Position numbers and translations under genes: made by a program
Notes under the pieces: model-generated
What the model saw: the letters and a program-made list of their open reading frames with translations, nothing else
Database searches by the model: none
Told to the model about the DNA's origin: nothing
Shown: positions 3,325-20,000 of the stretch, in pieces
Position numbering within the stretch: position 1 is the first letter of the stretch
How the letters are laid out: each line of letters starts with the position of its first letter
From: an uncultured virus (IMG/VR IMGVR_UViG_3300014914_000005)
Lineage: Duplodnaviria; Heunggongvirae; Uroviricota; Caudoviricetes
Length of the DNA: 20,000 nucleotides
IMG/VR virus record: IMGVR_UViG_3300014914_000005
Reading direction: 5' to 3' (one strand)

Positions 3325-4194
3325 ATGACATGGAAATTGAAGCTTGATGAAGAAGGCAAACCAGTATTCCAAGAGGAAAAGCCTGTGTATATCGACCCGG
3401 ATGGGAAAGAGATTGCACTAGACCCTCCCAGCATGTACGTCAAGATTATTGATCTTGGCAAAGAGAATAAGACGCGCCGGGAAGAGGCAGATGGCTTGTC
3501 GACAAAGTTGAAACTGTTTGAGGGAATCGACGATTTGGAGGAGTGGAAAAAGAAAGCAGACGATTCCATTGTAGCGGTTGAAAATTTTAACGACAAAGAT
3601 TGGATGAAAGCCGAAAAAGTCGAGAAGCTGAAAAGCGAAATGAAGAGTGCTTACGAGGAGCAAGAGAGCAATTTGAAAAGAAGCTTTACAGCTAAAGAGG
3701 ACGATTACAAGGGAACGATCAACAAGAAAGATCTACAGATTCGAACTCTTATGGTCTCCAACCGTTTTGCGACATCACCATTTTTTAGCGGAACAAACCC
3801 GAAAACAATTCTGCCGCCTGATATGGCTGAGACCTACTTTGGAAAATACTTCCGGGTAGAGGAAGACAATAACAGCGGTGAATTGAGCCTAGTGGCTTAT
3901 GACAAGAATAACGATCCCATTTTGTCCCGGCAGAACCCGGGAGAGATCGCAGGCTTTGATGAGGCCATGGCTGTTATTTGGGAAGCCTACCCACAAAAGG
4001 ATGCATTAATTCGTGGAGGCAAAAAAGGTTCTGGTGCTGGTGGTGGACAAGGCGATGATGAATTTGGTACTGATGCCGACCTCAAAAAGCTGGAAGAGCA
4101 GTATGCTGCGGCTAAAGAGGCTGGTGACGGAAAACAAATGGTTGCTCTTAAGAACCGTATTTTCGATCTAAAGCAAAAGAAAGCCGCTGCATAA
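3325..4194 (+). CDS. Capsid scaffolding protein (DUF6651-like)
   Basis: N-terminus KLKLDEEGKPV....KPVYIDPDGKEIALD, charged coiled-coil body, Gly-rich GSGAGGG linker and C-terminal helix; immediately upstream of major capsid. Confidence 0.85.
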   Translation: MTWKLKLDEEGKPVFQEEKPVYIDPDGKEIALDPPSMYVKIIDLGKENKTRREEADGLSTKLKLFEGIDDLEEWKKKADDSIVAVENFNDKDWMKAEKVEKLKSEMKSAYEEQESNLKRSFTAKEDDYKGTINKKDLQIRTLMVSNRFATSPFFSGTNPKTILPPDMAETYFGKYFRVEEDNNSGELSLVAYDKNNDPILSRQNPGEIAGFDEAMAVIWEAYPQKDALIRGGKKGSGAGGGQGDDEFGTDADLKKLEEQYAAAKEAGDGKQMVALKNRIFDLKQKKAAA

Positions 4195-4224
4195 AAACCC
4201 TATACTTAATGGAGGATTTTTATT

Positions 4225-5187
4225 ATGGCGAATGTAAATGCTGCAGCGACCGTTTGGAATTGCCCTAACTATACAGGCGAGCTGTATCTTATCGGCGCAA
4301 ACAAGACGCCGTTTCTTAACATGATTGGTGGACTGCAAGGCGGACGAATCCGGACCGTTGGAGATTTTCAGTTTCCGCTGGCACAGCCCTGGGCTCTGGA
4401 GGCCGCTTCTCAGCCTGAAATTACAGAGACCGCTTCTCTCACCGCCCCAAACCCATGGACCTATGTACGTGATCAGGATGTTAATACTGTCCAGATTTTT
4501 CAGCGACAGGTAAGCGTATCTTACGCAAAACAGTCTGTCACAGGTCAAGTCACCGCTGATGCTACCACAGGCCTTGTCGACATTAACGACGGTCAGCCCG
4601 TACAGAATGAGAGGGACTTTCAAATCTCTGCTCATATGCGGCAAATTTCTGTCAATGTCGATTACACCTTTCTTAATGGTGCATACCAGCAAGCCACAGC
4701 GGCAAATGTCGCCGCAAAGAACCGCGGGATTATTACCGCCTGCACAACCAATACCGTGAACGCCGCTGCCGCTGCCTTGTCTAAGGCTTTGGTGGACCAG
4801 TTGCTCCGGACCATGGCCTCTAATGGCGCTGAGTTTGTCAACCCGGTCATCTTCTGCAATGCTTTCCAAAAACAGAAGCTGAGTGATATTTACGGGTATG
4901 CGCCCCAAGACAGAAATGTCGGTGGTTACAATATCAAACAGATCGAAACGGACTTCGCCGTCCTTGGTATTGTATGGGCTCCCAATGTCCCAGCTGCTAC
5001 TCTGTTGATCGCCGATCTGGCGTTCTGTTCCCCAGTGTTCCTGGCGGTCCCGGAAAAAGGTGTTCTGTTCTATGAAGAGCTTGCCAAGACCGGAGCCAGT
5101 GAAAAGGGCCAGATTTACGGACAGATTGGATTGGATTATGGACCGGAGGAGTACCACGGAACCATCACCAGTCTGGCCACCTCCTAG
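4225..5187 (+). CDS. Major capsid protein (HK97 fold, DUF5309/SU10-like)
   Basis: 320 aa; TPFLNMIGGL, N.VQIFQ..VSVSY, FLNG.YQ, GQIYGQIGLDYGPE motifs; position after scaffold; RBS GGAGG. Confidence 0.9.
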   Translation: MANVNAAATVWNCPNYTGELYLIGANKTPFLNMIGGLQGGRIRTVGDFQFPLAQPWALEAASQPEITETASLTAPNPWTYVRDQDVNTVQIFQRQVSVSYAKQSVTGQVTADATTGLVDINDGQPVQNERDFQISAHMRQISVNVDYTFLNGAYQQATAANVAAKNRGIITACTTNTVNAAAAALSKALVDQLLRTMASNGAEFVNPVIFCNAFQKQKLSDIYGYAPQDRNVGGYNIKQIETDFAVLGIVWAPNVPAATLLIADLAFCSPVFLAVPEKGVLFYEELAKTGASEKGQIYGQIGLDYGPEEYHGTITSLATS

Positions 5188-5210
5188 TCATTGCTCTAGG
5201 TAGTAATGGC
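5187..5210 (+). terminator. Hairpin after capsid stop (possible weak terminator or mRNA-stabilising stem)
   Basis: GTCATTGCT-CTAGGT-AGTAATGGC, 9-bp stem with two G-U pairs; the T tract is not directly adjacent. Confidence 0.4.
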
Positions 5211-5242
5211 ATTCACATTTTGAAGAAAGGAGGATTCTGATT

Positions 5243-5407
5243 ATGGCTTTCAGGTATAACAAAGAAGACGTAAAAAACTTTGTGGAGAAGAACCCGGCCG
5301 TCCCTCCGAAAATGAGGGAATATTTTTCCTATGTCAACAATAACCTGTTGACATGGCCGACCACGACCACCACCACCACAACCACCACCACAACCACAAC
5401 CGCTTAA
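5243..5407 (+). CDS. Small 54-aa protein with C-terminal 14-Thr tail (MAFRYNKEDVKNFVEKNPAVPPKMREYFSYVNNNLLTWP-T14-A); candidate capsid decoration protein
   Basis: Absent from the ORF track, which shows nothing below 60 aa; strong RBS AAAGGAGG upstream, ATG 5243, TAA 5405-5407; fills the gap between capsid and next gene. Confidence 0.85.
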   Translation: MAFRYNKEDVKNFVEKNPAVPPKMREYFSYVNNNLLTWPTTTTTTTTTTTTTTA

Positions 5408-5452
5408 TAGTTTATTAAACCGAGTTGTGAAGTTGAATAGGAGGACGTTGTA

Positions 5453-5917
5453 ATGACAGAAGGACGAAAAAGAAAGTTTTATAGAGCTAACTTGCCCACG
5501 GTTGTTTGGGATGCTGGAAATGATAGAGCACTTGCCGAATTTGTCAATGGTCAGTTTGTTACAAGGGATCAAGACGTCGCCAAGAAGCTTTTGGGTTTGG
5601 GATATGTAGAGGTTGATATTAGTGCCGATGCACCGCCTCCGCTGCCTGACCCACCCATTCAACCGGCTGCAAGTCCGGATGTCCCACTGGCTGGCGCTTA
5701 TGCAAAGGAGCAAGCCGGTTCTGCTGAAGACGATGAGGATGAGAAAGAAGTAAAACCGGAGACCGAAGAGACGTTCACTGGTACTGATTCTCCGGAGACG
5801 CCTGAAGCAAAAGAAAAGAAACCGGCTAAGAAAAAAGCTTCTACGAAAAAGAAGTCAACCAAGTCGACGGCATCCAAAAAAGCTGCTTCCCGTTCTCTAA
5901 AGGGACGAGCAAAATAA
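5453..5917 (+). CDS. Small head-region protein with Pro-rich, acidic and Lys/Ala-rich (histone H1-like) low-complexity C-terminus
   Basis: RBS AGGAGG; compact N-terminal domain (AEFVNGQFVT.D....KLL.LGY) followed by low-complexity segments. Confidence 0.8.
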   Translation: MTEGRKRKFYRANLPTVVWDAGNDRALAEFVNGQFVTRDQDVAKKLLGLGYVEVDISADAPPPLPDPPIQPAASPDVPLAGAYAKEQAGSAEDDEDEKEVKPETEETFTGTDSPETPEAKEKKPAKKKASTKKKSTKSTASKKAASRSLKGRAK

Positions 5918-5929
5918 AAAGGGTGTGTC

Positions 5930-6370
5930 ATGGCGAATTATTCTACCGATCCGGATTTAGTGAAAATCCGTCCTAATATCCTTGAGCTTGGTGTCGCCTC
6001 TTGGAATACACAGCATACAGAAGCCAAAGCCCAGATCGACAGGATTTTGGAGTCTCGCTGGTATAATGAGGTGGCCGCAGAACATAGCATAAACTTCCGG
6101 TCTACACCATTTGATGCTGATAAGTGCGACGCGGCGCAACTGGTAAGAGTGGCATGTTACAAGACACTTGAATTGGCGTATTTGTTTTTAATGAAGGATT
6201 CGCCTGAACCGGATGGCTATGAAAGGGAAATGAAGCTCTTTGGTAAAATGTACAAAGAGGAGCTGAACCTTATTCTGTCTCTTGGAGTGAATTACGATTG
6301 GGACGATAGCGATACCATTGAGGATGACGAACGTTTGTTGCCTCGGTACCGCAGAACGCAGAGGGTATGA
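5930..6370 (+). CDS. Head-tail connector/adaptor protein
   Basis: 146 aa starting MANYSTDPDL, predicted helical; standard position after head genes. Confidence 0.7.
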   Translation: MANYSTDPDLVKIRPNILELGVASWNTQHTEAKAQIDRILESRWYNEVAAEHSINFRSTPFDADKCDAAQLVRVACYKTLELAYLFLMKDSPEPDGYEREMKLFGKMYKEELNLILSLGVNYDWDDSDTIEDDERLLPRYRRTQRV

Positions 6371-6822
6371 TGGCCGAACCGTTATTTGTAAACGTCGGGC
6401 CTGTTAGGCGGACACTCAGGGATATTGCGGATGGCTTAGATACTGCAGAAAGCCTATTTGCTGAGATTGGTGCATTTGTTAAGTCTCAAATTGATATCCG
6501 CACTGCCATGGGTGTTGACAAAAACGAGCGGCCATTTACGCCGTATAGTGCGGCTTATGCCTTGTTTCGCGAAGAGTCCGGAAGGTCGACAACGCCAAAT
6601 TTGTTTTTTACTGGTTCCATGATGTCTGCAATGACGTATGAAGCAACCGCTCGGCAGGCAAGGATCTTTTTTATGAATACCACAGATCCCAGTGGAGTCG
6701 CTAATCCCTTAAAAGCTTATTACCTAAATGAGGACAGAAATTTTTTCGGAATGAGCGAAGGTGACGTTAACAAGATTGTTGAAATGACAGAAAGGTATAT
6801 CGGCCGTATAATAGGAGATTGA
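6367..6822 (+). CDS. Virion morphogenesis/neck (tail completion, Mu gpG/HK97 gp10-like) protein
   Basis: F.PYS..Y...R, NLFFTGSMM, RNFFGMS motifs; ATGA overlap with previous gene. Confidence 0.75.
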   Translation: MMAEPLFVNVGPVRRTLRDIADGLDTAESLFAEIGAFVKSQIDIRTAMGVDKNERPFTPYSAAYALFREESGRSTTPNLFFTGSMMSAMTYEATARQARIFFMNTTDPSGVANPLKAYYLNEDRNFFGMSEGDVNKIVEMTERYIGRIIGD

Positions 6823-6823
6823 C

Positions 6824-7276
6824 ATGGCTGCTAATAGCCTGCGAGAAAGAATATTGGTTCAACTGGTTTCAACTGTTAGTGATGTGGAGGCGATTAGCAC
6901 TGTCCGCAGAACGAAACAGTCTTATGCGAAGTTAAAAGAATTCGCGGTTACGCAGTTTCCAGTTGTCGCCATAGTTGGCAGGCTCCCGCAACCTCTGGAG
7001 CATATTAAAGGACGTGCTCCGGGAGGTGCCGATCTATTTGTTTCAGATCTACAAGTTGATTTCTTTGTTTACGGCATGGCCAATGAGGATGAAGATACTT
7101 TGGTCAGTAATTTGGCTGATGATTTATGGGCTGTGTTACATGCAGACCAAACAGTCAATAATCTGGCTATTAGCACTTCCTTAGTATTTACGGAAGATCC
7201 GCAGTATTGGCCTCCCTTTGTCGCCTTCAAATTAACTGCTACTATCAAATATAAACATCTAATAGGAGGGATTTAA
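6824..7276 (+). CDS. Tail terminator protein
   Basis: 150 aa, N-terminal SLRERIL pattern, FP motif; directly upstream of tail tube. Confidence 0.7.
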   Translation: MAANSLRERILVQLVSTVSDVEAISTVRRTKQSYAKLKEFAVTQFPVVAIVGRLPQPLEHIKGRAPGGADLFVSDLQVDFFVYGMANEDEDTLVSNLADDLWAVLHADQTVNNLAISTSLVFTEDPQYWPPFVAFKLTATIKYKHLIGGI

Positions 7277-7278
7277 TA

Positions 7279-7836
7279 ATGCCGACTCCCCCAAGCACAG
7301 AAAACTATGCGATTGGAAAAGGGAAGCTGTATATTGCTGAATGGTCCGGCGCGACACCTCCGGCAACTGTCGACACTGCAATCGGTAATTGTACCAGCAT
7401 TGAAGTTGAGCCGACTGTCGAGCGCCTTGCACATTACAGTTCCCAAGCTGGTTTTCGAACAAAAGATAAAAACCCAATCATCCAAACTGAATATACAATC
7501 AATTTTGACTGCGACGAAATCGCCGCCACGAACCTTGCCATTTTTCTTATGGGCACTGTTAGCGGTAATATTGTCTCGGCCTTGCAAGGTACCAACAAGG
7601 AGTATGCGCTCAAGTTTGTGAGCGACAATCCCATCGGCCCCAACCAGACATGGGAGTTCTGGAAGGTTACGTTAACGCCGAACGGTGCATTGCAATTAAT
7701 TGGTGATGAGTGGATGGTGATGAGCTTTGCCGGTGAGGGTTTATCTGATGTCGCGAACCATGCATCAAGCCCGTACTTTACAGTTACGGAGGCAACTACT
7801 ACAACCACAACTACTACCACAACAACGACTGTATAG
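7279..7836 (+). CDS. Major tail tube protein with C-terminal T12-V tail
   Basis: NYAIGKGKLYI, IGNC, HYSS..G.R.KD, DEI...NLA.FL.G motifs; upstream of chaperone and tape measure; no sheath gene in the module (non-contractile tail). Confidence 0.85.
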   Translation: MPTPPSTENYAIGKGKLYIAEWSGATPPATVDTAIGNCTSIEVEPTVERLAHYSSQAGFRTKDKNPIIQTEYTINFDCDEIAATNLAIFLMGTVSGNIVSALQGTNKEYALKFVSDNPIGPNQTWEFWKVTLTPNGALQLIGDEWMVMSFAGEGLSDVANHASSPYFTVTEATTTTTTTTTTTTV

Positions 7837-7878
7837 TCGTAAAAGGTAATATTTCGTACGCAGCGAACGGAGGTTATT

Positions 7879-8259
7879 ATGGCGCGTAAAACGGAGACCT
7901 TTAAAATCGAGGGATATGATAAGAGCTTTACAGTTACCGAATTAACTGTGAAGCAAATTATCGGCCTCGTGCAAGACGATGTCCAAACGGCAGGTGATGA
8001 CTTTGATGCGTTACGTTCCATCTTCGCAGACAAAGTCCTCCCGCTTGCCTCAAATGTTACTATGGAAGATCTAGTAGAAATGGCTCCCAGCGATATCAAA
8101 GAGTTTTGGGATCATTTCTACAAAGTGAATTCCGTTTTTTTCGAGATGGCCCGCAAGTCCGGTCTGAAGGCAGTGCTGGAGACGTTACAAACAGCGATCC
8201 TTTCGGACTTTGGAAAGTGGCTTGCGGGCTCATTGAGGCCGGACATAAAGACGTCTTAG
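7879..8259 (+). CDS. Tail assembly chaperone (lambda gpG-like)
   Basis: 126 aa between tail tube and tape measure; ELTVKQI and VN..FF motifs; RBS GGAGG. Confidence 0.8.
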   Translation: MARKTETFKIEGYDKSFTVTELTVKQIIGLVQDDVQTAGDDFDALRSIFADKVLPLASNVTMEDLVEMAPSDIKEFWDHFYKVNSVFFEMARKSGLKAVLETLQTAILSDFGKWLAGSLRPDIKTS

Positions 8260-8405
8260 ATTATGGGTATTCGTTCTTTGTCGCTGCGTTAAATGAGCAC
8301 CAGAAGTTGAAGTTTGAGCGCCAAAAAGAATTAGCTGTTGCTGTGCGAATGGCGCAGCATGCAGACGGAAAGCAATGGCGTCAATACTTAAAACGAAAGG
8401 GCTAG
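8211..8405 (+). CDS. Tail assembly chaperone T segment (-1 frame), probably expressed as a G-T frameshift fusion
   Basis: Open -1 frame overlapping G (LIEAGHKDVLDYGYSFF...), no obvious own RBS/start, ends 3 nt before tape measure ATG. Start coordinate is the proposed slip site. Confidence 0.7.
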   Translation, partial: WKVACGLIEAGHKDVLDYGYSFFVAALNEHQKLKFERQKELAVAVRMAQHADGKQWRQYLKRKG

Positions 8406-8408
8406 AAT

Positions 8409-11018
8409 ATGCCAGACCGCAGCGATACATTCGAAATTCTTGTCCGCCTTAAAAACCTTGCCAAAGGTGGTTTGAAAGATGTCGATGACAGTTTAGAAAA
8501 AGTAGATCGACAGGCTAAGAAAACAAACAAAACTCTTGTTACACTCCGCAACGGCCTTTCTGGTATAGGTAAAGCCGCCTTCTCTCTTAAAGGCGCCTTT
8601 GTTGGTTTGGGCGTCGGCCTCATTGCAAAATCTTTTGTCGACGCTGCAAGCACCGCAGAACAATTCCGCACCCGTCTTGTTACCTTAACAGGTAGCGTTC
8701 AGGAAGCCAATAAACTATTCGAAGACATGAGCGAGTTTGCGTCCGGCGTCTCTTTTAGTTATGAAGAGATAATGGCCAGCGCTACAAACTTGACTGCTGT
8801 AATGAAAGGCGGTACGGCAGAGGTCCAACAGTATATGCCTTTGATTGCGGACCTTGCCGCGGCTTCCGGTTTAACAATTGAAGAAACAACCGGACAGGTT
8901 ATTAGAATGTACAGTGCCGGTGCGGCCGCTGCGGATATGTTTAGGGAACGTGGTGTTCTCGCAATGCTTGGTTTTCAGGCTGGTGTTTCTTACTCGGCAG
9001 AAGAAACAAAAGAAATGTTGATAGCGGCGTGGGAAGACCCAGCGTCTAAATTCCGTGATGCGTCTCAGGCATTGGCCACGACATGGGAAGGTATGTTGTC
9101 GATGATGGGTGACGCTTGGTTTCAATTCCGTACTATGGTATTTGAAGCCGGTGTATTTGATTACATGAAAGCCGCTCTCAGTCTTGTACTAGATTACATT
9201 AAACAAATAAAGTCCGGTGGCGATTTTGCTGATGTTGGTAAGAGTATTGCTGAACATATTATTTGGGGAATGGAGAAGGCTGCGCAAGCAGCGGCCCTTG
9301 TTGTAGATGCTTGGCGTGGTTGGAAATTAATATGGTTAACATTAAAGGCCGGCTTTACAACATTAATGTCGTTGATATACGACGGTATTAATAGTCTAAT
9401 TGGATTTCTCGATGATGTCCAAATCAAGATTGGCCAAGTGGCTCAAACTGCCGGTACTATGGTCAAAAATGCCGGTAGGTATTTAGGCGAAGATGTTAGA
9501 GACGCTGGCGAGGCATTGCAACAGCTCGGAACCGATATGGAACAATCGGCAAGAGCCAGCTCAGAAGGTCTACAAATAGCCGCTGATACTTGGGAGGAAA
9601 TGAAGAACGAAGCGAACTCTACATTGGTCTCCTATGCATTACAAGAATCGGCATTGACTAAAGTTAACAAAGTTCTTGGGCTTGTTAAGGAACGAGCTGA
9701 AGGATATGCCAAGGCCGCAAAAGAAGCCGCAGCTCAACCAGCGCCTGAAAGACCTGCAGCCGCTGCTCCCGCTGCATCGTTTGAAAAAGAGCTGGAGAGC
9801 GACTTAAGCAGAATGAAGGCCCATACCTCTACAACCATGGCGTTCTTGCAAGACGCTTACGATCAAGGCCTTGTGGGACTGGAAGATTACTTTGCCCAGA
9901 GGGAAACCAAACTTGTCGAAAGCTTTGAATTAGAAAAACGGGTATTGGAACAAAAGGCATTACTTGAAGAAAGCCCGGATAAGAAGCTAGCGGCCCAAGA
10001 TAAAATCTATGCTTTAGAGCAACAGCACCAAAGGGACTTGTTACAATTAACCATTGATCGACGTACAGCTGAAGAAGCAGAAGAACAAAGTATTTTGGAC
10101 GCCAAGGTGTTAATGGCCGATTTGAAAGTTCGCAGTGCTGAAGATGCTAGAGCCAAGACCCAGGCGCTTTTTGAACAAGAATTCTTAGATCTACAAACTA
10201 AACATATCAACGAGATTGCCGAGCTTGAAAATCTAAATGCAACCACGGCTATGATTAATGATGCTCATAGAGCACAGGAGCTTGAAAAGGAAAAGCTATA
10301 TGCAGACCAGAAAGCCCGCATAATGGAAATGACGTTTTCCGGTGTACAGCAAACACTGGGCTTTATGGAACAGGCTTTTGGGGACATGTACCAAGTAGCC
10401 GGTGAGGAGGCAAAGGAATTCTTCTATGCCCAAAAGGCGGTCCAGATTGCACAAACCATTATGTCGACTTATTCAACCGCTCAGAAGGCTTATGAGTCCC
10501 TTGCAAGCATACCATATGTTGGACAGGCTCTAGGTATTGCTGCAGCGGCCGCTGCTATTGCTTCCGGTTTGGCTAGAGTTAATATGATTAGAAGTCAGAA
10601 GCTAGCCGGTGGTGGTGAGGTCGCCGGCCATTCACCAACAGAGACAAGTGACAATGTACCTATCTGGGCCACGGCTGGAGAATTCGTACAAAGAAAATCA
10701 GCGGTCAGGCATTACGGAGTTGGTGTAATGGAGGCTCTTAATAAACGGTTAATTCCAAAAAGCCTGTTCAGCGGTTTCTCTTTACCTCACGTATTGCCTC
10801 ACCGCTCCATGGCATATCAAACCGGTGGCGCTGTAACACCTGCAAAGATCGACAGGCAGATGGAAAAACAACAGGAACCCATTAATGTCGTCAATGTTGT
10901 AGACCCGCAAATGTTTGATGAGTATTTGGCTTCTACAACTGGCGAACGTACATTGCTCAATGTAATGTCACGCAATCAGTATCAAGTCCAAAGAGTTTTA
11001 GGATTGGGAGGTGTTTAA
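8409..11018 (+). CDS. Tape measure protein
   Basis: 869 aa, Ala-rich and helical; tape-measure N-terminal domain (RLVTLTGS...A..LF.....FA); C-terminal GGG.V.G....SDNVPIWATAGEFV motif. About 125-130 nm tail by the usual ~0.15 nm/residue rule. Confidence 0.93.
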   Translation: MPDRSDTFEILVRLKNLAKGGLKDVDDSLEKVDRQAKKTNKTLVTLRNGLSGIGKAAFSLKGAFVGLGVGLIAKSFVDAASTAEQFRTRLVTLTGSVQEANKLFEDMSEFASGVSFSYEEIMASATNLTAVMKGGTAEVQQYMPLIADLAAASGLTIEETTGQVIRMYSAGAAAADMFRERGVLAMLGFQAGVSYSAEETKEMLIAAWEDPASKFRDASQALATTWEGMLSMMGDAWFQFRTMVFEAGVFDYMKAALSLVLDYIKQIKSGGDFADVGKSIAEHIIWGMEKAAQAAALVVDAWRGWKLIWLTLKAGFTTLMSLIYDGINSLIGFLDDVQIKIGQVAQTAGTMVKNAGRYLGEDVRDAGEALQQLGTDMEQSARASSEGLQIAADTWEEMKNEANSTLVSYALQESALTKVNKVLGLVKERAEGYAKAAKEAAAQPAPERPAAAAPAASFEKELESDLSRMKAHTSTTMAFLQDAYDQGLVGLEDYFAQRETKLVESFELEKRVLEQKALLEESPDKKLAAQDKIYALEQQHQRDLLQLTIDRRTAEEAEEQSILDAKVLMADLKVRSAEDARAKTQALFEQEFLDLQTKHINEIAELENLNATTAMINDAHRAQELEKEKLYADQKARIMEMTFSGVQQTLGFMEQAFGDMYQVAGEEAKEFFYAQKAVQIAQTIMSTYSTAQKAYESLASIPYVGQALGIAAAAAAIASGLARVNMIRSQKLAGGGEVAGHSPTETSDNVPIWATAGEFVQRKSAVRHYGVGVMEALNKRLIPKSLFSGFSLPHVLPHRSMAYQTGGAVTPAKIDRQMEKQQEPINVVNVVDPQMFDEYLASTTGERTLLNVMSRNQYQVQRVLGLGGV

Positions 11019-12040
11019 TGCATTACGTTAGCGGAACCACGACAGATTTTCATGATATTGTTGATGCCATGGTTAACCTAATGACTTCGGCATTGGGAGG
11101 CGGGTGGACAGTTATAATGTCTCGCAATACCCGTGATAACGCAGCTAATTATGGTGCATCCGTAGAAGAACCGGATATGGCTTCTACATGTACTGAAATG
11201 ATTTTAAAGAGTACAGGATACGGTGGAGCAGATAACTTTTACATTGGAATCCGTGAATGGGACAGAGATGATTATGCTACTCCGTTATCCGGTTTTGACT
11301 TAGCCGTATTAAATCATTTTGTTCTAGCGCCTCCCACTATATGGAATTATTTATATGGTACAATGACGGGAGCGATTAATACTTACAATAACACTTATAA
11401 TCGCTTTTCAAGTCACCCAGGCTTCTGCACTACCCAAGGTGTTAACATGGACTATTGGATTTCCTCTAGTCCCCAAAGAGTAATGGCCGTTGTGAAAATC
11501 CTGTCTAATTATGAAAGCTTTTATGTTGGTGCTGGTGACAGGTTTGGTAATCCATCTGATTATCCATGCCCAATGTTTGCATGCTCTACAAGTCAAGGAA
11601 TAAATGCTCCAGACGAGGCTTTGGCAACCCGCGCCAAGTTTGTACCAGCCGGAGGGAGTGTAGCGCATGTTATTACTCCCGGGAATTACATGTTGACAGC
11701 TGGTAACATATTGACACTTCCATATGAGCAAATGCAGAATGTGACAAGTTATGAACTTCAAAGTTTAAATAACGATAGAAGGCTTTGTATGCCTGTCTTG
11801 CTTGTAAATGCTTCTACGAATCCTCATGAATTGTTAATGGAGCTTGAAGGTGTTTACCAAATATTCGGACAGTTGATTAGTAGCGAGGATGAAATAAGTA
11901 TTGACGGGAGCCGTCATTTAGTATTTCAAAATCTACATGAAACAGATTATTACCAATATATGGCGTTTCCAATTGCCACGTCGACAACCACGACTACAAC
12001 AACCAGTACCACAACAACCACAACGACAACCACTGTATAA
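11018..12040 (+). CDS. Tail-tip virion structural protein (YuA/phiJL001-like) with C-terminal Thr-rich tail
   Basis: M.Y.SGT..D..D start, GGGW, ELEGVY...G...SED.I.IDG..HLVFQN end, then TS-T7-S-T9-V; TAATG coupling to tape measure. Confidence 0.7.
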   Translation: MHYVSGTTTDFHDIVDAMVNLMTSALGGGWTVIMSRNTRDNAANYGASVEEPDMASTCTEMILKSTGYGGADNFYIGIREWDRDDYATPLSGFDLAVLNHFVLAPPTIWNYLYGTMTGAINTYNNTYNRFSSHPGFCTTQGVNMDYWISSSPQRVMAVVKILSNYESFYVGAGDRFGNPSDYPCPMFACSTSQGINAPDEALATRAKFVPAGGSVAHVITPGNYMLTAGNILTLPYEQMQNVTSYELQSLNNDRRLCMPVLLVNASTNPHELLMELEGVYQIFGQLISSEDEISIDGSRHLVFQNLHETDYYQYMAFPIATSTTTTTTTSTTTTTTTTTV

Positions 12041-12052
12041 GGGAGTTAAACA

Positions 12053-13006
12053 ATGACCAGTGTAAACACTTATACCTCGTACACGCCAGCAACCTGTCAC
12101 CTTGCATTAACAAGGATCAGAGAGTTTTTAATTGCTAATGGTTGGACGGAAGAAGAATATGTGTCCGGTATGGAATGGCTGTCTGATGGCGATGGTACGT
12201 ATTCTTGGCAGCTTGGAGGCGATGCAGAAACGTTTTTGGATATGTCCAGTCAAGGTTATAACGGACTCGGCAACCAAGATATGCGTTACAGATTCTGGGT
12301 GACGGCTTCTGGTGCTGACCCGTTAGCGGAATATTTATATGTTTCGTTGGTCGACCCTACCGATCCAGAAGTTGATGAGAATGTTTCTACGACTCCGGTA
12401 TTACAAAAGTATGTGACCTACCTTCGTATAGGCATTCCTACTGGAACCGGATTGACTATACATGCATTCGATTTAAATACCGGCTTCCCGACCTTTGCAA
12501 CTTTCATATTACAATTGACAGATTATTTCAATGTATTGTTTGCGATCGGGTGTCCTGATTTGTTTGTTACTACAGATGAAGTTTGGGGAATATGGGGAGC
12601 AAGTACCGCACTGGCTTATTATACTATCACAGGCCATAATCTACAAACACGCCAGCCTCTTGCTAAATGGAATAATTATAGAGGCGGAAATACTGGTGTA
12701 TGGCAGTCAAACCATTATTGCGGTGGGACTTACGGATGGAGCGCAACCAATTATGGTTTTATCGCGCCTTACGGAGGTGCGGTACAATTAAACGCTTATG
12801 CCGGTAGACGTTCTTTTATCAAACCGATTTATTTTTGTACAGACGATAACGACCAGCTCTGGCCGGTAGGCTCTTATCCATGGTATTACTGTAGATGGCC
12901 CGGGCTCGATCTTGGTGAAACAATAACTTATGGTGGACAACAATATGTGGTATTCCCGGATGGGTTTACCAGTAAAGATTATGGAATTGGAATGCGGATA
13001 GCCTAA
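12053..13006 (+). CDS. Second tail-tip virion structural protein, likely distant paralog of the preceding gene
   Basis: FLIANGW near N-terminus, GETITYGGQQYVVFP near C-terminus, paralleling the previous ORF. Confidence 0.65.
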   Translation: MTSVNTYTSYTPATCHLALTRIREFLIANGWTEEEYVSGMEWLSDGDGTYSWQLGGDAETFLDMSSQGYNGLGNQDMRYRFWVTASGADPLAEYLYVSLVDPTDPEVDENVSTTPVLQKYVTYLRIGIPTGTGLTIHAFDLNTGFPTFATFILQLTDYFNVLFAIGCPDLFVTTDEVWGIWGASTALAYYTITGHNLQTRQPLAKWNNYRGGNTGVWQSNHYCGGTYGWSATNYGFIAPYGGAVQLNAYAGRRSFIKPIYFCTDDNDQLWPVGSYPWYYCRWPGLDLGETITYGGQQYVVFPDGFTSKDYGIGMRIA

Positions 13007-14175
13007 TGTCTACAACTACGACAACTACAACTTCAACAACAACCACCACGTCGATCACGTGGTTTACAACTACCACTACAGAGCCGCCTCTGCAAGGTCA
13101 CGTTTATGGCTCAATGGATGTAGACGCTATATTTATTTCATCGGTAGATTGGGACGTCGGAACATATAAAGATGCACACCCACCAACGGCCATGGTTTTT
13201 GGAGAAGGCGGTACTCCGGAGCGAGAAGGAATTGTAACTACTTTTCATCCTCCAATTGTACATGTCAACGATTCACAAGGCCATAATCCATATGCGCAGG
13301 AATGGAATTTCGGTGTTATCTTTGATCCGTATTTTATTGATTGCGGTTTTATTGTATGGGATGTCGATTATACCATTTCTGTTTGGAACCAATGGAAAAC
13401 GAAAAGTGTTGATATCACGGATATTGTAATCAGTGGCGCAGCTGGTATTTCGTTAGATAAGTCAGCTCCGATAACTGTTCCACCTTATGGTCAAGAGCTA
13501 TTTACATTGACTGTTCATGGCGATGGCCCGCCATTCCAATCTTCCACGATTACATTTACAATTGATGGACAAGATTACGTTTGTTCAATTACTGGTTTGC
13601 GGGTGCTTCCAATGCCCATGGCCTGTAATTGGGAACAGCGGTATAGAATAGGCTATACGTTTAGAACCATATTACAAAGCAACCGCAAGTTTCACGAACA
13701 GCGACGGCCCACTTGGGATAAACCGAAACGGGATGTGGCCTATTCAGTATGGGAACAAGGTGTTAATATACAGTATGCCCGCAATCTTATAAAATACGGC
13801 CATGATAAATTCTTTATGGTACCTCTGTTTAATGAGCCAATATTTTCAGACCGGGTACATGGCTTAACAGGTTTTGATCATGTGACAGCGGATGCCTCGT
13901 TGGATATCGACCATTATTATAATCTACAAAATTTATGCGATTTTGTAATGATTATTGATCATGCAAGTTTGGCCACTGAAATAAAAGAAATTGATTCTAT
14001 TGTTGGAAACATAATAACATTTACAGAACTTGTAACTGGTTCTTTCAGTGAAGACTCGGCCATGATTTATCCGGCTTTTGTGGCTACAATAGATGGTGCC
14101 ATATATACATCTGAAACAGACGACTTGGATGAAATCGACCTTAAATTTGTGGAGTATATAAAAAGTGACAGATAG
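13006..14175 (+). CDS. Tail protein: N-terminal Thr tract, Ig-like beta-rich region and distal-tail (Dit)-like region
   Basis: MS-T7-S-T5-SITWF-T5 start; VWN...GI.L..P..VPP....L.V..DGPP segment; W...Y..GY.F.T......EQRR motif. Confidence 0.65.
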   Translation: MSTTTTTTTSTTTTTSITWFTTTTTEPPLQGHVYGSMDVDAIFISSVDWDVGTYKDAHPPTAMVFGEGGTPEREGIVTTFHPPIVHVNDSQGHNPYAQEWNFGVIFDPYFIDCGFIVWDVDYTISVWNQWKTKSVDITDIVISGAAGISLDKSAPITVPPYGQELFTLTVHGDGPPFQSSTITFTIDGQDYVCSITGLRVLPMPMACNWEQRYRIGYTFRTILQSNRKFHEQRRPTWDKPKRDVAYSVWEQGVNIQYARNLIKYGHDKFFMVPLFNEPIFSDRVHGLTGFDHVTADASLDIDHYYNLQNLCDFVMIIDHASLATEIKEIDSIVGNIITFTELVTGSFSEDSAMIYPAFVATIDGAIYTSETDDLDEIDLKFVEYIKSDR

Positions 14176-14791
14176 CCTTGAAGACTTAGGAACGATTGAT
14201 GTAATGACATGGGTATGGAATTGGAGTCCTGTTCCGCGTGTAGAGTTTTTGTTTAGCCGGACGCTTCGGGACTTTGGTTCTACTGCGCAAGAGGTAGTGA
14301 GCGAAACGGATTACAACCCATTTCAGGGACAGTATGAATTCCTAATTTCTGATAAAGAAACAGAGTATGACTTTCTCGAATTCTTTTTAGGCAAACGTGG
14401 CAGAACCCAAAAGTTTTGGTGTAAGAGCCCTCATCAAACATTTACATTAAAATCCAATGTTGGCGCGGGTTCGTCTTTGCTTTATGTAGAAGATAACAGA
14501 GCCGATTATATTTGGCAAGGCCATGAACGTATCTGGATCAAGCTTGCCAATGGAGACGAGATAACAAGACAAGTGAGCAATGTTGTCCGGGATACGGATT
14601 TGGACCGTATTGAATTACATTTAGAAACGTTGATTACGACAGGATTTGATATTGAAGATGTTGTATTTTTTGGTCGCATTTATCTTGTGCGATGCGACTT
14701 GGATAAATACCAAGTAAGTTATGAATCCGATAAGGTTTGTACTGTAACAATAAAAGTGTATGAGACTGTGAGAGAATACGATGACATATGA
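14165..14791 (+). CDS. Distal tail (Dit/DUF2460-like) protein
   Basis: GTG start with GGAG at 14151-14154; EFF...RGR...FW motif; precedes hub gene. Confidence 0.6.
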   Translation: MTDSLEDLGTIDVMTWVWNWSPVPRVEFLFSRTLRDFGSTAQEVVSETDYNPFQGQYEFLISDKETEYDFLEFFLGKRGRTQKFWCKSPHQTFTLKSNVGAGSSLLYVEDNRADYIWQGHERIWIKLANGDEITRQVSNVVRDTDLDRIELHLETLITTGFDIEDVVFFGRIYLVRCDLDKYQVSYESDKVCTVTIKVYETVREYDDI

Positions 14792-15626
14792 TACCAATTT
14801 AACAGAACACCAGATGGATGGATTACCTGAACTGTACAGGATTTCTTTTGGTAACAGTATTGAATATTTTACGTCTTGGCCTGAATCCCTTACATTTGGT
14901 GGACAACTATATAAAGCGGCTCCCATTAAACGTTCTGGTTTTAATCTCGACAGTCAATATAAAAATGTTACTATGACAATCAGCGCGCCGCCAACAGAAG
15001 CATTTGCTCAATACTTGGCAGGCTCTCCCGCTGGTGTAACAGAGATTATAATATACAGAGCACTAGAAACGGATTTGACGGATTACAAAGTTTTATTTAG
15101 TGGCAATATCAAATCGATTTCTTTTAAAGACCATTTGTGTTCAGCAGAAGTCGTTTCGAATAGTAATATATTGGATAACCCAATTCCGCCATACCTTTAT
15201 CAGAGTTATTGTAACCATACAATCTTTGATGCCGGGTGTTCGTTATCTGCATCGACTTGGTCACAGAATCTTGGTGGTATTGTTCTGGGTGAAGATGCGA
15301 ATGGTTATTATGCGGAACATGCTTATTTCGGCACTGGCTTTTATTCAGATGGTTACTTTACACAAGGTGTAATTGCAAGTGTCGACGGAGAGTTTGTGAG
15401 GTTGATTACATACCATGACCGCGCAAACGGTAAATGTTATTTACACGTTCCATTTGGATCAGATGAATTGGAGTCTGGTGATAATGCTTATGCATATCCC
15501 GGATGTGATGGTTCGCCCGGAGTTTGTGATAGTAAGTTTAGCAATCTACTTCATTTTCTTGGCATGCCTTATATTCCAAGTAACAACCCGGTCATTTGGG
15601 GTTTCTGTCAACCGAAGCCGGTATAA
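14781..15626 (+). CDS. Baseplate hub protein, DUF2163/phage BR0599 family (lambda gpL-like, probable Fe-S)
   Basis: Four conserved Cys in YCNHTIFDAGC and GCDGSPGVC; C-terminal KF.N..HFLG.PYIP..NP signature. Confidence 0.88.
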   Translation: MTYDTNLTEHQMDGLPELYRISFGNSIEYFTSWPESLTFGGQLYKAAPIKRSGFNLDSQYKNVTMTISAPPTEAFAQYLAGSPAGVTEIIIYRALETDLTDYKVLFSGNIKSISFKDHLCSAEVVSNSNILDNPIPPYLYQSYCNHTIFDAGCSLSASTWSQNLGGIVLGEDANGYYAEHAYFGTGFYSDGYFTQGVIASVDGEFVRLITYHDRANGKCYLHVPFGSDELESGDNAYAYPGCDGSPGVCDSKFSNLLHFLGMPYIPSNNPVIWGFCQPKPV

Positions 15627-15628
15627 TT

Positions 15629-16129
15629 ATGGAAAGCATATTTGTAGACAATAAAAAGTATAAGGAATTTGAAACGGCGCTTGTGTCATGGCTTGGAACG
15701 CCATATAAACACTTTACTATGGTAAAAGGCCGCGGAGCCGATTGTGCTTTGTTTGTTATGGCCTGTTACAAAGAAGCAGGCGTATTGTCCCATGTTAATA
15801 CTGATGATTATTACCCAAAGGATTGGTGGAGGCATGGTGGAGGAGAATTCATAAGAACACAGTTTGTACAGCATATGGATTTATATGCCTTGCAAGGTTA
15901 TACCTCTATCTGGATCGACAAGGGAGACGAAGACGAAATGTTACAAGGTGATTTAATTGGTTTCTCTTTGTCTAAGACTGGCATTACTCATCATTGCGGA
16001 ATACTACTGGCAAACAAAATTGAAATGATACATAGCATTAACCACCGAGGAGTTGTAAAGGTTCCCTATTCACCATGGTGGGAGCGTCACAGAACCGGTG
16101 TAATTCGTATTATTAAAGGAACTGACTAA
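15629..16129 (+). CDS. NlpC/P60 family tail-associated peptidase
   Basis: WLGTPYKH...GADC, HCGI and MIHS give Cys-His-His residues. ATG 15629 preferred over the track's TTG 15596. Confidence 0.88.
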   Translation: MESIFVDNKKYKEFETALVSWLGTPYKHFTMVKGRGADCALFVMACYKEAGVLSHVNTDDYYPKDWWRHGGGEFIRTQFVQHMDLYALQGYTSIWIDKGDEDEMLQGDLIGFSLSKTGITHHCGILLANKIEMIHSINHRGVVKVPYSPWWERHRTGVIRIIKGTD

Positions 16130-18399
16130 TGGGATATGAACTGGCAATTGCTTTAATCGTTGGAGTAGTATTATATGCGGTAGCGTATTTGTATTATGGC
16201 TCCGGTGGAGACATGGAGCAGGATAATGCTAGTCCGGCAACTTTAGATGAGTTCTCAGTTACACAAAGTAATGAAGGTTCTGCGATTCCTTTAATATATG
16301 GTCGTAAAAGAACTCGTGGGAATGTTTTGTGGTACGGTAATCTTATGACCGAAGCAGTATGGTCCGGTGGTGGTGGTAGTGATGACCCGGACCCGGTTAT
16401 TATTGGTTACAAATATTATTTAGATGTATGGCAATCCGTTTGTATTGGTCCCGCGACATTAGTTGCGTATTATGTAGACAATGATGATGACCTTGGAATT
16501 ACCAGTTCAGGTGAGACATGGAATGATGGAAGCACTTATTCGTTCCCAACCGAGCCGGGACAGTATGCCGCGCCGTTGTTTGGTACTGCGCATATTTTTT
16601 GGGAGCAATGGTTAGTTGGAGAAAACAGAACAAGGCTTCCGACCGTCCATTTTGTTGTAGAACATTACCCAACTGGTTCTGGCTTGAGTTATATTGAAGA
16701 AACAAACGGATGTAATCCGGCTGCTATAATATATGACTTGCTCATACGAGCACAAGCTACAAACGAAGATATAGACATAGCTTCTTTCCAAGCTGCCAAT
16801 ACGTACTGGCACAACGCCGGTTATGGCTTGAATATGTCGTTTAGCAGACAAGTCAGCTGCAGGGAAGCCATTGCTGCAGTGCTCAAACAGGTTGGCGGCG
16901 TGTTCTCTGTTACAAATGAAAATAAGTTTTATATCAAAGCGTTTGATCCGGATGAAGCAGCCGCCGCTACAATCGAAACAGAAAAGTTTTTGAATTTTGC
17001 TTTTGTGCGTAAAAGCTGGTCAGATACCTATAATGATTTTAGAGCCACCTTTGTCGATGCTTCTAATGATTACAGTAAAAGAACTGTCGCGGTTCGTAAT
17101 GTGGCGAACTTCTGGCTCACTGGAAAGAAGAAACAATTGAATGTCGATCTAAATGCTTTCCGGGATATTGACCAAGTCAGTCAGCGGTTATGGGAGGTAA
17201 TGAAGACACAGAGTTATCCATTTGCCGAGTTTGATTTTGCAACCAATTTAGAATTCTATAGTATTAATGTGGGCGATGTTGTTGAAATTGTAAATGATGA
17301 TTACGGTATTGTATCCGCTTATATACGTATAATGTCGAAAGACGTTAGTGAGTACGACCAGAACAGGGTTGGATTTAAAGGAAGCCAAATGGTCGAACGT
17401 GAGATGGATACTAATTATAGTGTGACAGGCGGTACGGAATGGGAGGAGCCGGACCAAACTATCACGCCAATTGTCAACCAGCAAGTTATCGAACTTCCGT
17501 TTATAAGCGGAGAGATTGGATATGGAGTTACTTATCTGTTACTTGCAGAAAGGCCGCATTCTTGGGAAACCTCTTTTGTGGTAATTAAAAGTTATAATGG
17601 TACAAACTACGAAACGCAACAGGTCGCACACCGCTGGGCTCAATATGGAACGCTTGATGAGGCCTATGTAGAAACGCCGGACATTGACGATGAAATAGGA
17701 ATACTGTATACGCCAAGCCGGGAGGACCCAAGTTTTGATAGTATATCACGAGCTGAATTATTTTCATTAAATAGACTGGCATATATAAACGGCGAGTTCT
17801 TTGGCTTTCAAACAGTTACACCAGAAGGTCCGTCAAGTATACGGTTAACCGGAGTTGTCAGACGTTTGTTTAATACTAATCAGGATTTTGCTACTCATGC
17901 TTCCGGTTCTACGATTTGGTTATTTGAATACCCAAGAAGTATTAATAATGTAATGATGTCAGAATTGGCTACAAGTTTTTATTTAAAGTTCTTACCATCG
18001 TTTGTTGGTGTTACTTTGGACGCTTCGGATGCTACGCAAATTTTAGTAACTGCCGCGACAGTTCTTAAACCATTTGCACCGACAAGAATTAAAGCGGTAC
18101 GAACTGGAACAAGCGTTGCAATTGAGTGGTGGCCGGCAACTCAAATATCACAAGGCGCAGGAGCAGTCGCAGCAGATGGACAAGTAGATCAATACCCGTT
18201 TGCTTTTAATGGTCAATTCCAATGGTGGGATTCTATTTCAGGTACTTACCCGGCCGACGCTGTAACATCGACAACTATTGTTCGGGCCGGATCATTTACA
18301 TTTAGAGTTCGTATGCAAGACATCGCCAGTCGATTAAGTGATTGGGCTGAATTAACTATTGGCGCGGCTGATGGAACATATATAGGACCAGACGCTTAG
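16129..18399 (+). CDS. Central tail tip/host specificity protein (lambda J/GTA gp15-like)
   Basis: 756 aa; EGSAIPLIYGR.R..GNVLWYG, GYKYYL, NPAAIIYDLL, LTGVVRRLFNT motifs; follows NlpC/P60. Confidence 0.85.
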   Translation: MGYELAIALIVGVVLYAVAYLYYGSGGDMEQDNASPATLDEFSVTQSNEGSAIPLIYGRKRTRGNVLWYGNLMTEAVWSGGGGSDDPDPVIIGYKYYLDVWQSVCIGPATLVAYYVDNDDDLGITSSGETWNDGSTYSFPTEPGQYAAPLFGTAHIFWEQWLVGENRTRLPTVHFVVEHYPTGSGLSYIEETNGCNPAAIIYDLLIRAQATNEDIDIASFQAANTYWHNAGYGLNMSFSRQVSCREAIAAVLKQVGGVFSVTNENKFYIKAFDPDEAAAATIETEKFLNFAFVRKSWSDTYNDFRATFVDASNDYSKRTVAVRNVANFWLTGKKKQLNVDLNAFRDIDQVSQRLWEVMKTQSYPFAEFDFATNLEFYSINVGDVVEIVNDDYGIVSAYIRIMSKDVSEYDQNRVGFKGSQMVEREMDTNYSVTGGTEWEEPDQTITPIVNQQVIELPFISGEIGYGVTYLLLAERPHSWETSFVVIKSYNGTNYETQQVAHRWAQYGTLDEAYVETPDIDDEIGILYTPSREDPSFDSISRAELFSLNRLAYINGEFFGFQTVTPEGPSSIRLTGVVRRLFNTNQDFATHASGSTIWLFEYPRSINNVMMSELATSFYLKFLPSFVGVTLDASDATQILVTAATVLKPFAPTRIKAVRTGTSVAIEWWPATQISQGAGAVAADGQVDQYPFAFNGQFQWWDSISGTYPADAVTSTTIVRAGSFTFRVRMQDIASRLSDWAELTIGAADGTYIGPDA

Positions 18400-18407
18400 A
18401 GGAGATT

Positions 18408-19574
18408 ATGGCAAAACTAAGTCCAACTTTATTAGAGACCATAGATTTTGGAACCCAGGGATGGACCGAAATTCTGAATGATAATTTCCGCAAGCTTAAT
18501 GACAATCTCCTGTTTGTGGCTTCGATGCTTGATGTCAATTTTGGTACATTGGCCGATGATGATATTTTGGTATGGGACGCCGGTTCGCAAAAATGGATTA
18601 ATCTGCCTTATACAGATTTAGCCACCTCAACAACCACGACCACAACTACAACTTACACAACCACAACGTCAATTACATGGTTCACAACAACCAGCACGAC
18701 TACAACCACATCGACAAGTACGACAACTACGTCAGTTACATGGTTCACAACCACAACCACTACGTCGACAACCACCACGTCAACAAGCACAACCACATCG
18801 ACAAGTACGGTCACAACCACAACCACTACGTCGACAACCACCACGTCAACAAGCACAACCACATCGACAAGTACGGTCACAACCACAACCATTAATCCAT
18901 TAGATTACGATGTATTAATGATTCACAGTGATGATGCGGATGGCTCAACTACGTTTACAGACAGTTCAAGTTCTGGCCATACCATTACAAATAGCGCTTC
19001 GGTTGAACATAGTGAAGACGAACAATATTTTTGTAGATCATCGATTTACTATCCAAATAATACACAATGGTTGCAAGTGGCTGCGTCGGCTGATTTTAAT
19101 TTTGGAACCGGTGCATGGTGTATTGACTTCTTCCTTAAGATGGACGATTACGATGCCAACCAATATTTCTTTGATATTGTCACTGGCGTTAATGGCATGT
19201 ACCTCAGAACCAATGCCAAAATCATTGAGTTACGAGAAAGCAATATAGGTGCCGGTGTTTATCTAAGTTATACAGTGACAGAAGATACTGATTGGCACCA
19301 TCTAGCCGTGGAAGCAGACGGAGCCGGAAACCAATACATGTATTGGGATGGTACTATGGTTGATTCAGCCAGTGAATCCGGTTCTTGGGGCGGAACGGAG
19401 ATTTTCCATATTGGGGACGCTGGTAATCATGGAGCCTTCGGAATTAATAATGGTTATATAGATCACTTTAGAGTATTGAAAGGCGCGCGCCTTGGTAATG
19501 GCAGCGCATTTCCAGTTCCTACTGGGCCGATGGATTATACTTGTATGACAACGACAACTACGACGACGGTGTAA
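18408..19574 (+). CDS. Tail fibre/receptor-binding protein: anchor, 89-aa Thr/Ser stalk, LamG/ConA-like lectin domain, T7-V tail
   Basis: DGSTTFTDSS, FNFGTG.WCIDFF, WHHLAV, YWDG, NGYIDHFRVLKG.R motifs typical of phage LamG domains; RBS GAGGAG. Confidence 0.82.
   Translation: MAKLSPTLLETIDFGTQGWTEILNDNFRKLNDNLLFVASMLDVNFGTLADDDILVWDAGSQKWINLPYTDLATSTTTTTTTTYTTTTSITWFTTTSTTTTTSTSTTTTSVTWFTTTTTTSTTTTSTSTTTSTSTVTTTTTTSTTTTSTSTTTSTSTVTTTTINPLDYDVLMIHSDDADGSTTFTDSSSSGHTITNSASVEHSEDEQYFCRSSIYYPNNTQWLQVAASADFNFGTGAWCIDFFLKMDDYDANQYFFDIVTGVNGMYLRTNAKIIELRESNIGAGVYLSYTVTEDTDWHHLAVEADGAGNQYMYWDGTMVDSASESGSWGGTEIFHIGDAGNHGAFGINNGYIDHFRVLKGARLGNGSAFPVPTGPMDYTCMTTTTTTTV
18745..18891 (+). repeat. Perfect 66-bp tandem repeat (about 2.2 copies) within the Thr/Ser stalk
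   Basis: Unit TCACAACCACAACCACTACGTCGACAACCACCACGTCAACAAGCACAACCACATCGACAAGTACGG starts at 18745 and 18811, partial copy at 18877. Confidence 0.92.
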
Positions 19575-19576
19575 TT

Positions 19577-19783
19577 ATGACATTATTATCTCCATCCAAT
19601 TTAGAAACAGCGGATTACAATTTGGCACGATGGCAAAGAATATATAATAAGAATATTCAATTGCTCAATACTGTCCTATTGAAAATATCTGCTCTTGGTG
19701 ATGTTGATACAACTGATTTAATCGATGGTTCTTATTTACAATGGAATGCGTCGACAAGTACATGGGAGGCGAAACATAAATAA
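19577..19783 (+). CDS. 68-aa anchor-only paralog of the tail fibre N-terminal domain
   Basis: ATG 19577 preferred over the track's TTG 19541; MTLLSPSNLETADY...W...N...LN..LLK..L.DV....DG..L.W....W aligns by eye with residues 1-65 of the fibre. Confidence 0.75.
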   Translation: MTLLSPSNLETADYNLARWQRIYNKNIQLLNTVLLKISALGDVDTTDLIDGSYLQWNASTSTWEAKHK

Positions 19784-20000
19784 TGGCCACCTCATTGACT
19801 CCAAGCAATTTAATAGTTACAGACGATTATGGCGAATCAACTTGGGAAGATTCGTTCGACGCCAATTTTATATTGTTAAATAATACATTATTAAAACTTG
19901 GTGCTTTATTCGATGTCGATGTTACCGGCATTAGCGATGGAGATTTGTTATTCTATAATACCAGTACGTCGAAATGGGAGGCCAAAGCGGAGCCGACTAC
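19783..20000 (+). CDS. 5' part of a third fibre-anchor paralog (MATSLTPSNLIVTDDYGESTWEDSFDANFILLNNTLLKLGALFDVDVTGISDGDLLFYNTSTSKWEAKAEPT...), truncated by window end
   Basis: TAATG coupling; frame open to end of window; same anchor motif as the two preceding genes. Confidence 0.8.
   Translation, partial: MATSLTPSNLIVTDDYGESTWEDSFDANFILLNNTLLKLGALFDVDVTGISDGDLLFYNTSTSKWEAKAEPT

Follow-up and report, generated by a model that had tools for sequence, protein, structure and literature searches.

Threonine tracts on virion proteins of an uncultured sediment phage as probable acceptor tags for phage-encoded O-glycosylation

The 20,000-nucleotide stretch of DNA analyzed here (the window) comes from an uncultured caudoviricete (IMG/VR record IMGVR_UViG_3300014914_000005) and carries runs of threonine codons in six virion genes. 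We consider it likely that these Thr tracts are genetically encoded acceptor tags for O-glycosylation by phage-encoded enzymes. The tags are selected runs of hydroxyl residues at the termini or in the linkers of virion proteins, and they occur in virion genes only; in relatives, they covary in presence and in residue type with soluble glycosyltransferase (GT) families encoded in the same operon. An initial annotation had already interpreted the tracts as acceptor tags, and this interpretation now finds support, all of it comparative, in the enzyme cassettes of relatives, in tagless sisters, in the coding strand of the tagged genes, and in the position of the tag on the tail tube.

Results

The five Thr tracts described in the initial annotation are all present, each in a plus-strand gene. 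A run of 14 Thr (5360-5401) follows a conserved anchor of about 39 residues in the 54-residue protein encoded after the capsid gene (post-capsid protein, 5243..5407), and a run of 12 (7795-7830) lies at the C terminus of the tail tube protein (7279..7836). A C-terminal TS-T7-S-T9 tag (11978-12034, with T7-S-T9 at 11984-12034) is found on a tail/baseplate structural protein (11018..12040), and an N-terminal tag (13009-13080, with T7, T5 and T5 runs at 13012-13080) on a tail assembly protein (13006..14175). The probable fibre/adhesion protein (18408..19574) has a Thr/Ser stalk (18624 to about 18890) as well as a T7 run at the C terminus (19548-19568). In a background of 6.9% Thr, 5e-5 runs of at least seven Thr would be expected by chance over the ~6300 codons. 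The suspicion that the last open reading frame (ORF; 19783..20000, plus strand), which is cut by the window end, begins a sixth tract was confirmed by contigs of both sediment metagenome runs in which the window DNA is present: they extend past base 20000 and add 11 in-frame codons, 9 for Thr and 2 for Ser. In two relatives (G003 and G009), the homologues of this ORF likewise have a Thr tag at their end. Contigs of the second run also span the tail-tube, 11018 and 13006 tracts with zero differences, so these are not assembly artefacts. The tagging had been called virion-wide, which is overstated: only 6 of the 23 ORFs annotated in the window carry tags; the major capsid, portal, neck, terminator, hub, NlpC/P60 and large tip proteins are untagged. 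As a separate observation, the peptide TTTTS(I/V)TWFTTT recurs at 13036-13080 and 18654-18760, in two unrelated genes and with synonymous differences, which suggests copying of tags between genes.

The mixture of codons in the tracts had been taken to point to selection on the protein rather than microsatellite slippage, and both the neighbour-codon counts and the predominance of Ser among the interruptions bear this out. All four Thr codons are in use in the window, where identical neighbours make up 14 of 65 pairs (22%) versus 27.5% expected from codon frequencies; in a wider set that takes in 80 related loci besides the window and comprises 78 distinct Thr tags, the figures are 241 of 1044 pairs (23%) versus 26%. 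As there is no excess of identical neighbouring codons, the tracts are not fresh slippage. Of the 130 residues interrupting the 78 tags, 108 are Ser (62 TCN and 46 AGY) and 3 are Ala, while Pro, Ile, Asn and Lys do not occur, though they are one base away from ACN. Judged by these counts, the conserved feature of the tags is a run of hydroxyl side chains. Tag length varies across relatives, up to 64 Thr. Some loci hold a second post-capsid gene with an unbroken run of 28 to 64 Thr (L036:4521-4877, L014:3382-3744 and L046:11224-11442).

A search with the capsid protein provided 83 loci, namely the best 80 of 136 viral relatives and 3 in metagenome-assembled genomes (MAGs). Based on the post-capsid protein and/or the C terminus of the tail tube, 62 of these loci are Thr-type, 13 are Ser-type, 3 are untagged and 5 are uninformative; two mixed Thr/Ser loci that were split by the script are counted by eye as Thr-type. 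The post-capsid slot is tagged in most loci, and within a genome the post-capsid and tail-tube slots have the same tag type. The post-capsid slot of the three tagless capsid relatives holds a gene for a 140-residue protein whose body is probably immunoglobulin (Ig)-like (Atlas TM about 0.6, a lead only). The sister lineage that has this protein family in the post-capsid slot has tags at none of 33 loci; none of 17 of its records, 2 of them complete, has either a Thr run or the GT family A1 described below, so tags and enzyme are missing together. One complete tagless genome (G024) has no match to either PF00534 or PF00535.

According to the initial annotation, the acceptor-tag interpretation would not survive if tracts were equally frequent in nonstructural genes. 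In six complete genomes, all 39 tagged ORFs lie on the virion strand, and none of the 212 ORFs of the other strand is tagged (in one of the six, G005, nearly all genes are on one strand). Outward placement of the tags had also been named as a check, and for the tail tube it is supported by comparison with a solved homologue. The protein belongs to phrog_807 and matches the YSD1_22/Chi tail tube (E value, 4e-25; Foldseek match to 6xgr, E value, 2e-11). Its core aligns with YSD1_22 up to about residue 281, and the tag starts where the C-terminal Big-1 domain starts. In the accessible part of the YSD1 structure paper, this domain 3 is a flexible Big-1 domain located away from the tube (PMC7385642). 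Because the tag aligns with the start of this outward domain, it most likely faces outward as well, an exposure argued from homology. AlphaFold leaves the tag residues unstructured (predicted local distance difference test [pLDDT] about 60). The 54-residue post-capsid protein is probably a capsid decoration protein, as judged by gene position and a weak kinship to the Ig-like proteins: its 39-residue anchor weakly resembles the N terminus of the post-capsid protein of the tagless sisters (hhalign probability 24%, E value, 9e-4). A complex prediction for capsid and anchor scored 0.00, which weighs neither way.

Co-occurrence of tags with glycosyltransferase genes, another check that had been proposed, holds in the relatives. 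Twenty longer records were examined for an enzyme cassette. Fifteen of these are Thr-tagged. A1 is encoded in each of the 12 whose sequence extends to the end of the virion operon; the remaining 3 stop inside the tail genes. A1 is likewise present in all eight records that have the tail-tip type of the window together with downstream coverage. It usually opens a cassette of GT4, GT2 and GT9 enzymes and methyl-, acetyl- and sulfotransferases; the sulfo- and methyltransferases differ between cassettes, while A1 is constant. The predicted fold of A1 is GT-B/GT4 (AF2 pLDDT 85), with Foldseek matches to BshA and MshA. A second family, the GT2 enzyme A8, is found near 32 of 64 A1 loci; its three best PDB matches are polypeptide GalNAc-transferases (E values from 3e-5 to 6e-4), and its DxH motif (D137/H139) is invariant. 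In the complete genome G003, A1 and A8 are encoded at L086:12814-14157 and 16891-17943, respectively. Two Ser-tagged relatives (G008 and G021) lack A1 and encode a GT9-GT4 fusion, A2, at the same position; a third (G014) stops before it. One genome, G020, encodes both A1 and A2 and carries both tag types. A1 and A2 are unrelated in profile comparison. The A1, A8 and A2 proteins examined have no hydrophobic or membrane segment, consistent with soluble enzymes. Among the remaining cassette genes, the unannotated A9 resembles a nucleotide-diphospho-sugar transferase, and an SQD1-like UDP-sulfoquinovose synthase is part of one cassette type (E value, 1e-95; L096:17819-19054 in G005, and also in G006, G010, G015 and G020), which suggests that a sulfonated sugar may be present on the particle. 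Regarding A2 itself, its GT9 domain contains four invariant Cys residues. As to a possible relationship of A2 to TibC, one of the BAHT (TibC/AAH) protein heptosyltransferases (PMC4358343), no TibC chain was listed for either a single sequence or a 10-sequence profile; rows for the enterotoxin B chain in the profile search are chance matches (E values above 0.3).

The association also holds when the search starts from the enzymes, which provided 64 viral loci for A1 and 12 for A2. A strict Thr tag was found at 37 of the 64 A1 loci and at none of the 12 A2 loci, and a Ser tag at 4 of 64 and 10 of 12, respectively. Twelve of the A1 loci were known from the capsid search; among the 52 new ones, 28 have a tag within the locus, and 9 of the other 24 records have a Thr run elsewhere. 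Eight of the last 15 records were examined: four have mixed Thr/Ser tags, one (G040) has EEETTTT tags, two are uninformative fragments, and one (G043) is a true exception. When enzymes were clustered at 70% identity, a tag was present in the locus for 28 of 44 A1 and 8 of 11 A2 clusters. The Ser fraction of the tag is at most 0.52 in 27 of the 28 tagged A1 clusters, the outlier being G020, and at least 0.83 in all 8 tagged A2 clusters. Thr is in the majority in 23 of 28 A1 versus 0 of 8 A2 clusters (Fisher p 4e-5, for clusters that are not phylogenetically independent). Ser tags furthermore come in sub-dialects that track A2 subfamilies, with Ser/Arg/Cys in a distant group and Ser/Glu or Ser/Lys/Gln in a close group (L215-L219 versus L208-L213). 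G040 is a Mu-like provirus with unrelated head genes and a tail module of the window type. It encodes both A1 and A8 (L236/L237) and carries its EEETTTT repeats, a third dialect of tag, on proteins of the head decoration, tail tube and baseplate (for example, L237:427-924, minus strand). Its proviral nature may make it the easiest of these phages to test.

Discussion

We propose that, late in infection, a phage glycosyltransferase in the cytoplasm would place the first sugar on a Thr (or Ser) of the tag. The best candidates for this step are A1, encoded in every tagged relative for which the region is available, and A8, present at about half of the A1 loci. A1 has constancy in its favor and A8 the better resemblance to a peptide O-glycosyltransferase, and each is a candidate priming enzyme. 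Further GTs and methyl-, acetyl- and sulfotransferases, in some genomes together with UDP-sulfoquinovose synthase, would then extend and decorate the chain. Head, tail tube, baseplate and fibres would thereby be covered by a mucin-like brush, hydrophilic and often anionic, at positions where relatives show Ig-like domains. In the phage studied here, an A1-led cassette would most likely lie a few kilobases beyond the window end. As to the benefit, we can only speculate that the brush controls interactions of the particle surface in sediment, through less sticking to minerals or decoys, resistance to proteases, or binding to the host surface; escape from mammalian antibodies, which is reported as an effect in mycobacteriophages, is unlikely as a driver in a sediment phage.

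A broader scheme is put forward more tentatively, at somewhat less than even confidence. In this scenario, tags and enzymes would form an interchangeable code, wherein poly-Thr is read by the GT4-fold family with its partner resembling polypeptide GalNAc-transferases (ppGalNAc-Ts) and poly-Ser by the GT9-GT4 fusion. Tags could be pasted onto any exposed terminus, replacing Ig-like domains, and tag-enzyme pairs could be swapped within the capsid lineage and move into unrelated phages, creating a glycocalyx of sediment phages. The scheme would also offer a source of tag-directed, mucin-type O-glycosylation enzymes that act in the cytoplasm.

Several observations weigh against phage-encoded glycosylation of the tags. 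The cassette of this phage was not found: none of the 23 ORFs in the window belongs to a glycosyltransferase family, and pattern searches for sequence beyond the window came back empty. The glycan is predicted from comparative evidence. The fold of A1 does not show a protein acceptor, since A1 resembles GT4 enzymes in general and has no special closeness to GtfA, which ranks 25th (Z 12.2; root mean square deviation 16.9; 335 residues aligned), and the match of A8 to ppGalNAc-Ts is weak. Sixteen of the 44 A1 clusters are untagged in the locus; whole-record checks rescued 14 of 24 records, and 9 fragments were left unresolved. The complete 92-kb genome G043 encodes A1 (L221:6518-7840), with no A8 nearby, and has a related but untagged tail tube and a single Thr/Ser patch elsewhere, possibly as a result of tag loss or the use of another acceptor. 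The tagless G019 has a weak GT2 match (E value, 2e-6, below the cutoff). When long viral records were selected solely by a run of 12 Thr, 3 of 20 encoded A1 and 4 had a strong match to A8, and these enzymes therefore do not explain Thr runs in general. Finally, relatives share ancestry. On a quick tree of 64 distinct, near-full-length capsids, Ser tags need five changes, of which well-supported branches force only one, and such a tree does not establish independent switches between Thr and Ser.

Some of these observations would fit a scenario in which the tags act unmodified, as a flexible hydrophilic brush, as beta-strands or in binding minerals or polysaccharides, and in which the GT cassette acts elsewhere, on the host surface or some other target, with shared ancestry as its only link to the tags. 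The A1 gene of G043, the many Thr-run records with neither A1 nor A8 and the clustering of tag types on the capsid tree all agree with it, and phage GTs can change the serotype of the host, as described in the available sections of PMC12619734. Nevertheless, we regard this scenario as improbable. It leaves unexplained why the tag residue follows the enzyme family, why G020 has both pairs, and why tags and cassette occur together in a Mu-like phage with unrelated head genes. The enzymes examined are, moreover, soluble, and where DNA-type TAGT glycosyltransferases do occur, in G003, they are encoded apart, on the replication arm.

Slightly less probable still is that the tags of this particular phage are modified in some other way, either by an O-glycosylation system of the host or by direct O-sulfation, methylation or phosphorylation of Thr. 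The lack of a visible enzyme in the window, the sulfo- and methyltransferases of the cassettes, and a host-dependent modification of a phage tail protein reported in the accessible part of PMC13445384 would be compatible with this. Against it stand the constancy of A1, where sulfo- and methyltransferases vary, and its presence in all eight relatives that share the tail type and have downstream coverage. Neutral expansion of low-complexity sequence or an assembly artefact is a highly improbable origin of the tracts: tag length does vary widely and the stalk at 18624-18890 contains a 66-bp tandem repeat (3.6 copies), but slippage and artefact are rejected by the codon statistics and the agreement of the second run, the interruptions are mostly Ser, and the slots are fixed across the lineage.

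If the tags are indeed glycosylated by phage enzymes, the system would be a variation on known virion glycosylation. Virion O-glycosylation in mycobacteriophages, Che8 and others, was reportedly described by Freeman et al. in 2023 (Cell Host Microbe). In the sections available of two further papers (PMC12619734 and PMC13445384), phage-encoded glycosyltransferases of mycobacteriophages are linked to glycans at the C termini of capsid and tail tube subunits. The parallel would lie in phage-encoded GTs, seen here in relatives but not in the window itself, and in a proposed acceptor at the C terminus of the tail tube whose exposure is argued from homology. It differs in that the proposed acceptors are long runs of Thr or Ser on six proteins, with the major capsid protein untagged, and in that the habitat is sediment. 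When one representative each of A1, A8 and A2 was compared with 50,697 phage records, no mycobacteriophage matched; among cultured phages, A1 and A2 had no match, and A8 had only one, a GT of a Tunturiibacter phage.

A second parallel is the GtfA/GtfB system for glycosylation of serine-rich repeat proteins, in which, as far as the accessible text of PMC12809243 goes, priming of the Ser/Thr-rich repeats falls to a GT4-type enzyme in the cytoplasm, and GTs of the same cluster extend the chains. A1 is a GT4-fold enzyme, with a putative priming role, encoded in the same operon as putative substrates with Thr/Ser runs. However, these substrates are virion proteins rather than exported, wall-anchored adhesins, and A1 is no closer to GtfA than to other GT4 enzymes; in the cassettes scanned, neither a GtfB-like partner nor accessory Sec genes were seen. 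A8, with GalNAc-T10, PGANT9 and GalNAc-T4 as its best, albeit weak, PDB matches, shares the DxH motif and, putatively, Thr-rich acceptors with mucin-type GT27 enzymes, but it is a soluble protein of about 350 residues with no membrane anchor, no room for a ricin-type lectin domain and only GT2 matches in Pfam. On the substrate side, the tail-tube tag occupies the same C-terminal attachment point as the Ig-like display domain of YSD1_22 in a homologous tube protein, with an unstructured run of 12 Thr in place of a folded Big-1 domain.

The literature searched, with subscription papers and supplements outside its scope, nowhere describes homopolymeric tags that accompany GT cassettes, and shows virion glycosylation for mycobacteriophages only. 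The accessible part of one paper on phage and poly-threonine (PMC6821194) has nothing on virion tags. If our interpretation is correct, glycosylated virions would be widespread in the uncultured phages of sediments; A1 alone comprises 634 protein clusters at an E value of 1e-20 or better. The acceptor could be read from sequence, and enzyme-substrate pairs could be tested with synthetic peptides without phage culture. Soluble enzymes that glycosylate a short Thr/Ser tag in the bacterial cytoplasm would furthermore be useful for glyco-engineering, and the switch between Thr and Ser would provide a built-in specificity control.

Gene content and relatives of the window

The window covers a siphophage operon that runs from the head genes to the tail tip, with portal, SU10-type capsid, neck, tail tube, tape measure, baseplate/hub, NlpC/P60 and tip genes. 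Of the two sediment metagenome runs that contain this DNA, one may be its source. The major capsid protein (4225..5187, plus strand; Pfam SU10_MCP, E value, 1e-61) has no Thr run. Its identity to capsids of cultured phages is at most 61%, and 39% for the best-scoring of the matches listed. The nearest record, 4.5 kb long, is identical to window positions 3599-8151. Relatives were found in MAGs labelled Desulfobacteraceae, Zixibacteria and Desulfovibrio, which are MAG labels and not a host assignment. Searches with the tip protein and a 68-residue ORF as queries found no viral loci, and no longer version of the last ORF was found when one was sought. In G003, two TAGT-family glycosyltransferases are encoded on the replication arm, next to radical SAM genes (L087:17443-19112, minus strand); these are probably a separate DNA-modification system.

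Tail tubes related to that of the window are found in YSD1, Chi and JBD30. JBD30 chains are also weak matches of two baseplate genes, one encoding the tail/baseplate protein at 11018..12040 (phrog_687; 8rk3_c, E value, 0.0025), whose homologues are tagged, and the other the tail assembly protein at 13006..14175 (phrog_1082; 8rk3_U, E value, 3e-5), whose homologues lack the N-terminal tag in most relatives. The probable fibre protein (phrog_701 and phrog_32294) consists of an N-terminal attachment domain, the Thr/Ser stalk, a virion-protein domain and the C-terminal T7. Its attachment domain of about 68 residues (18408-18620) recurs in the two ORFs that follow, at 19577..19783, an untagged 68-residue paralogue on the plus strand that was recognized by alignment and whose homologues are untagged as well, and at 19783-20000, so that three adjacent paralogues share a common N-terminal domain and two of them are tagged. 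Together, they possibly form a heterotrimeric fibre-attachment module.

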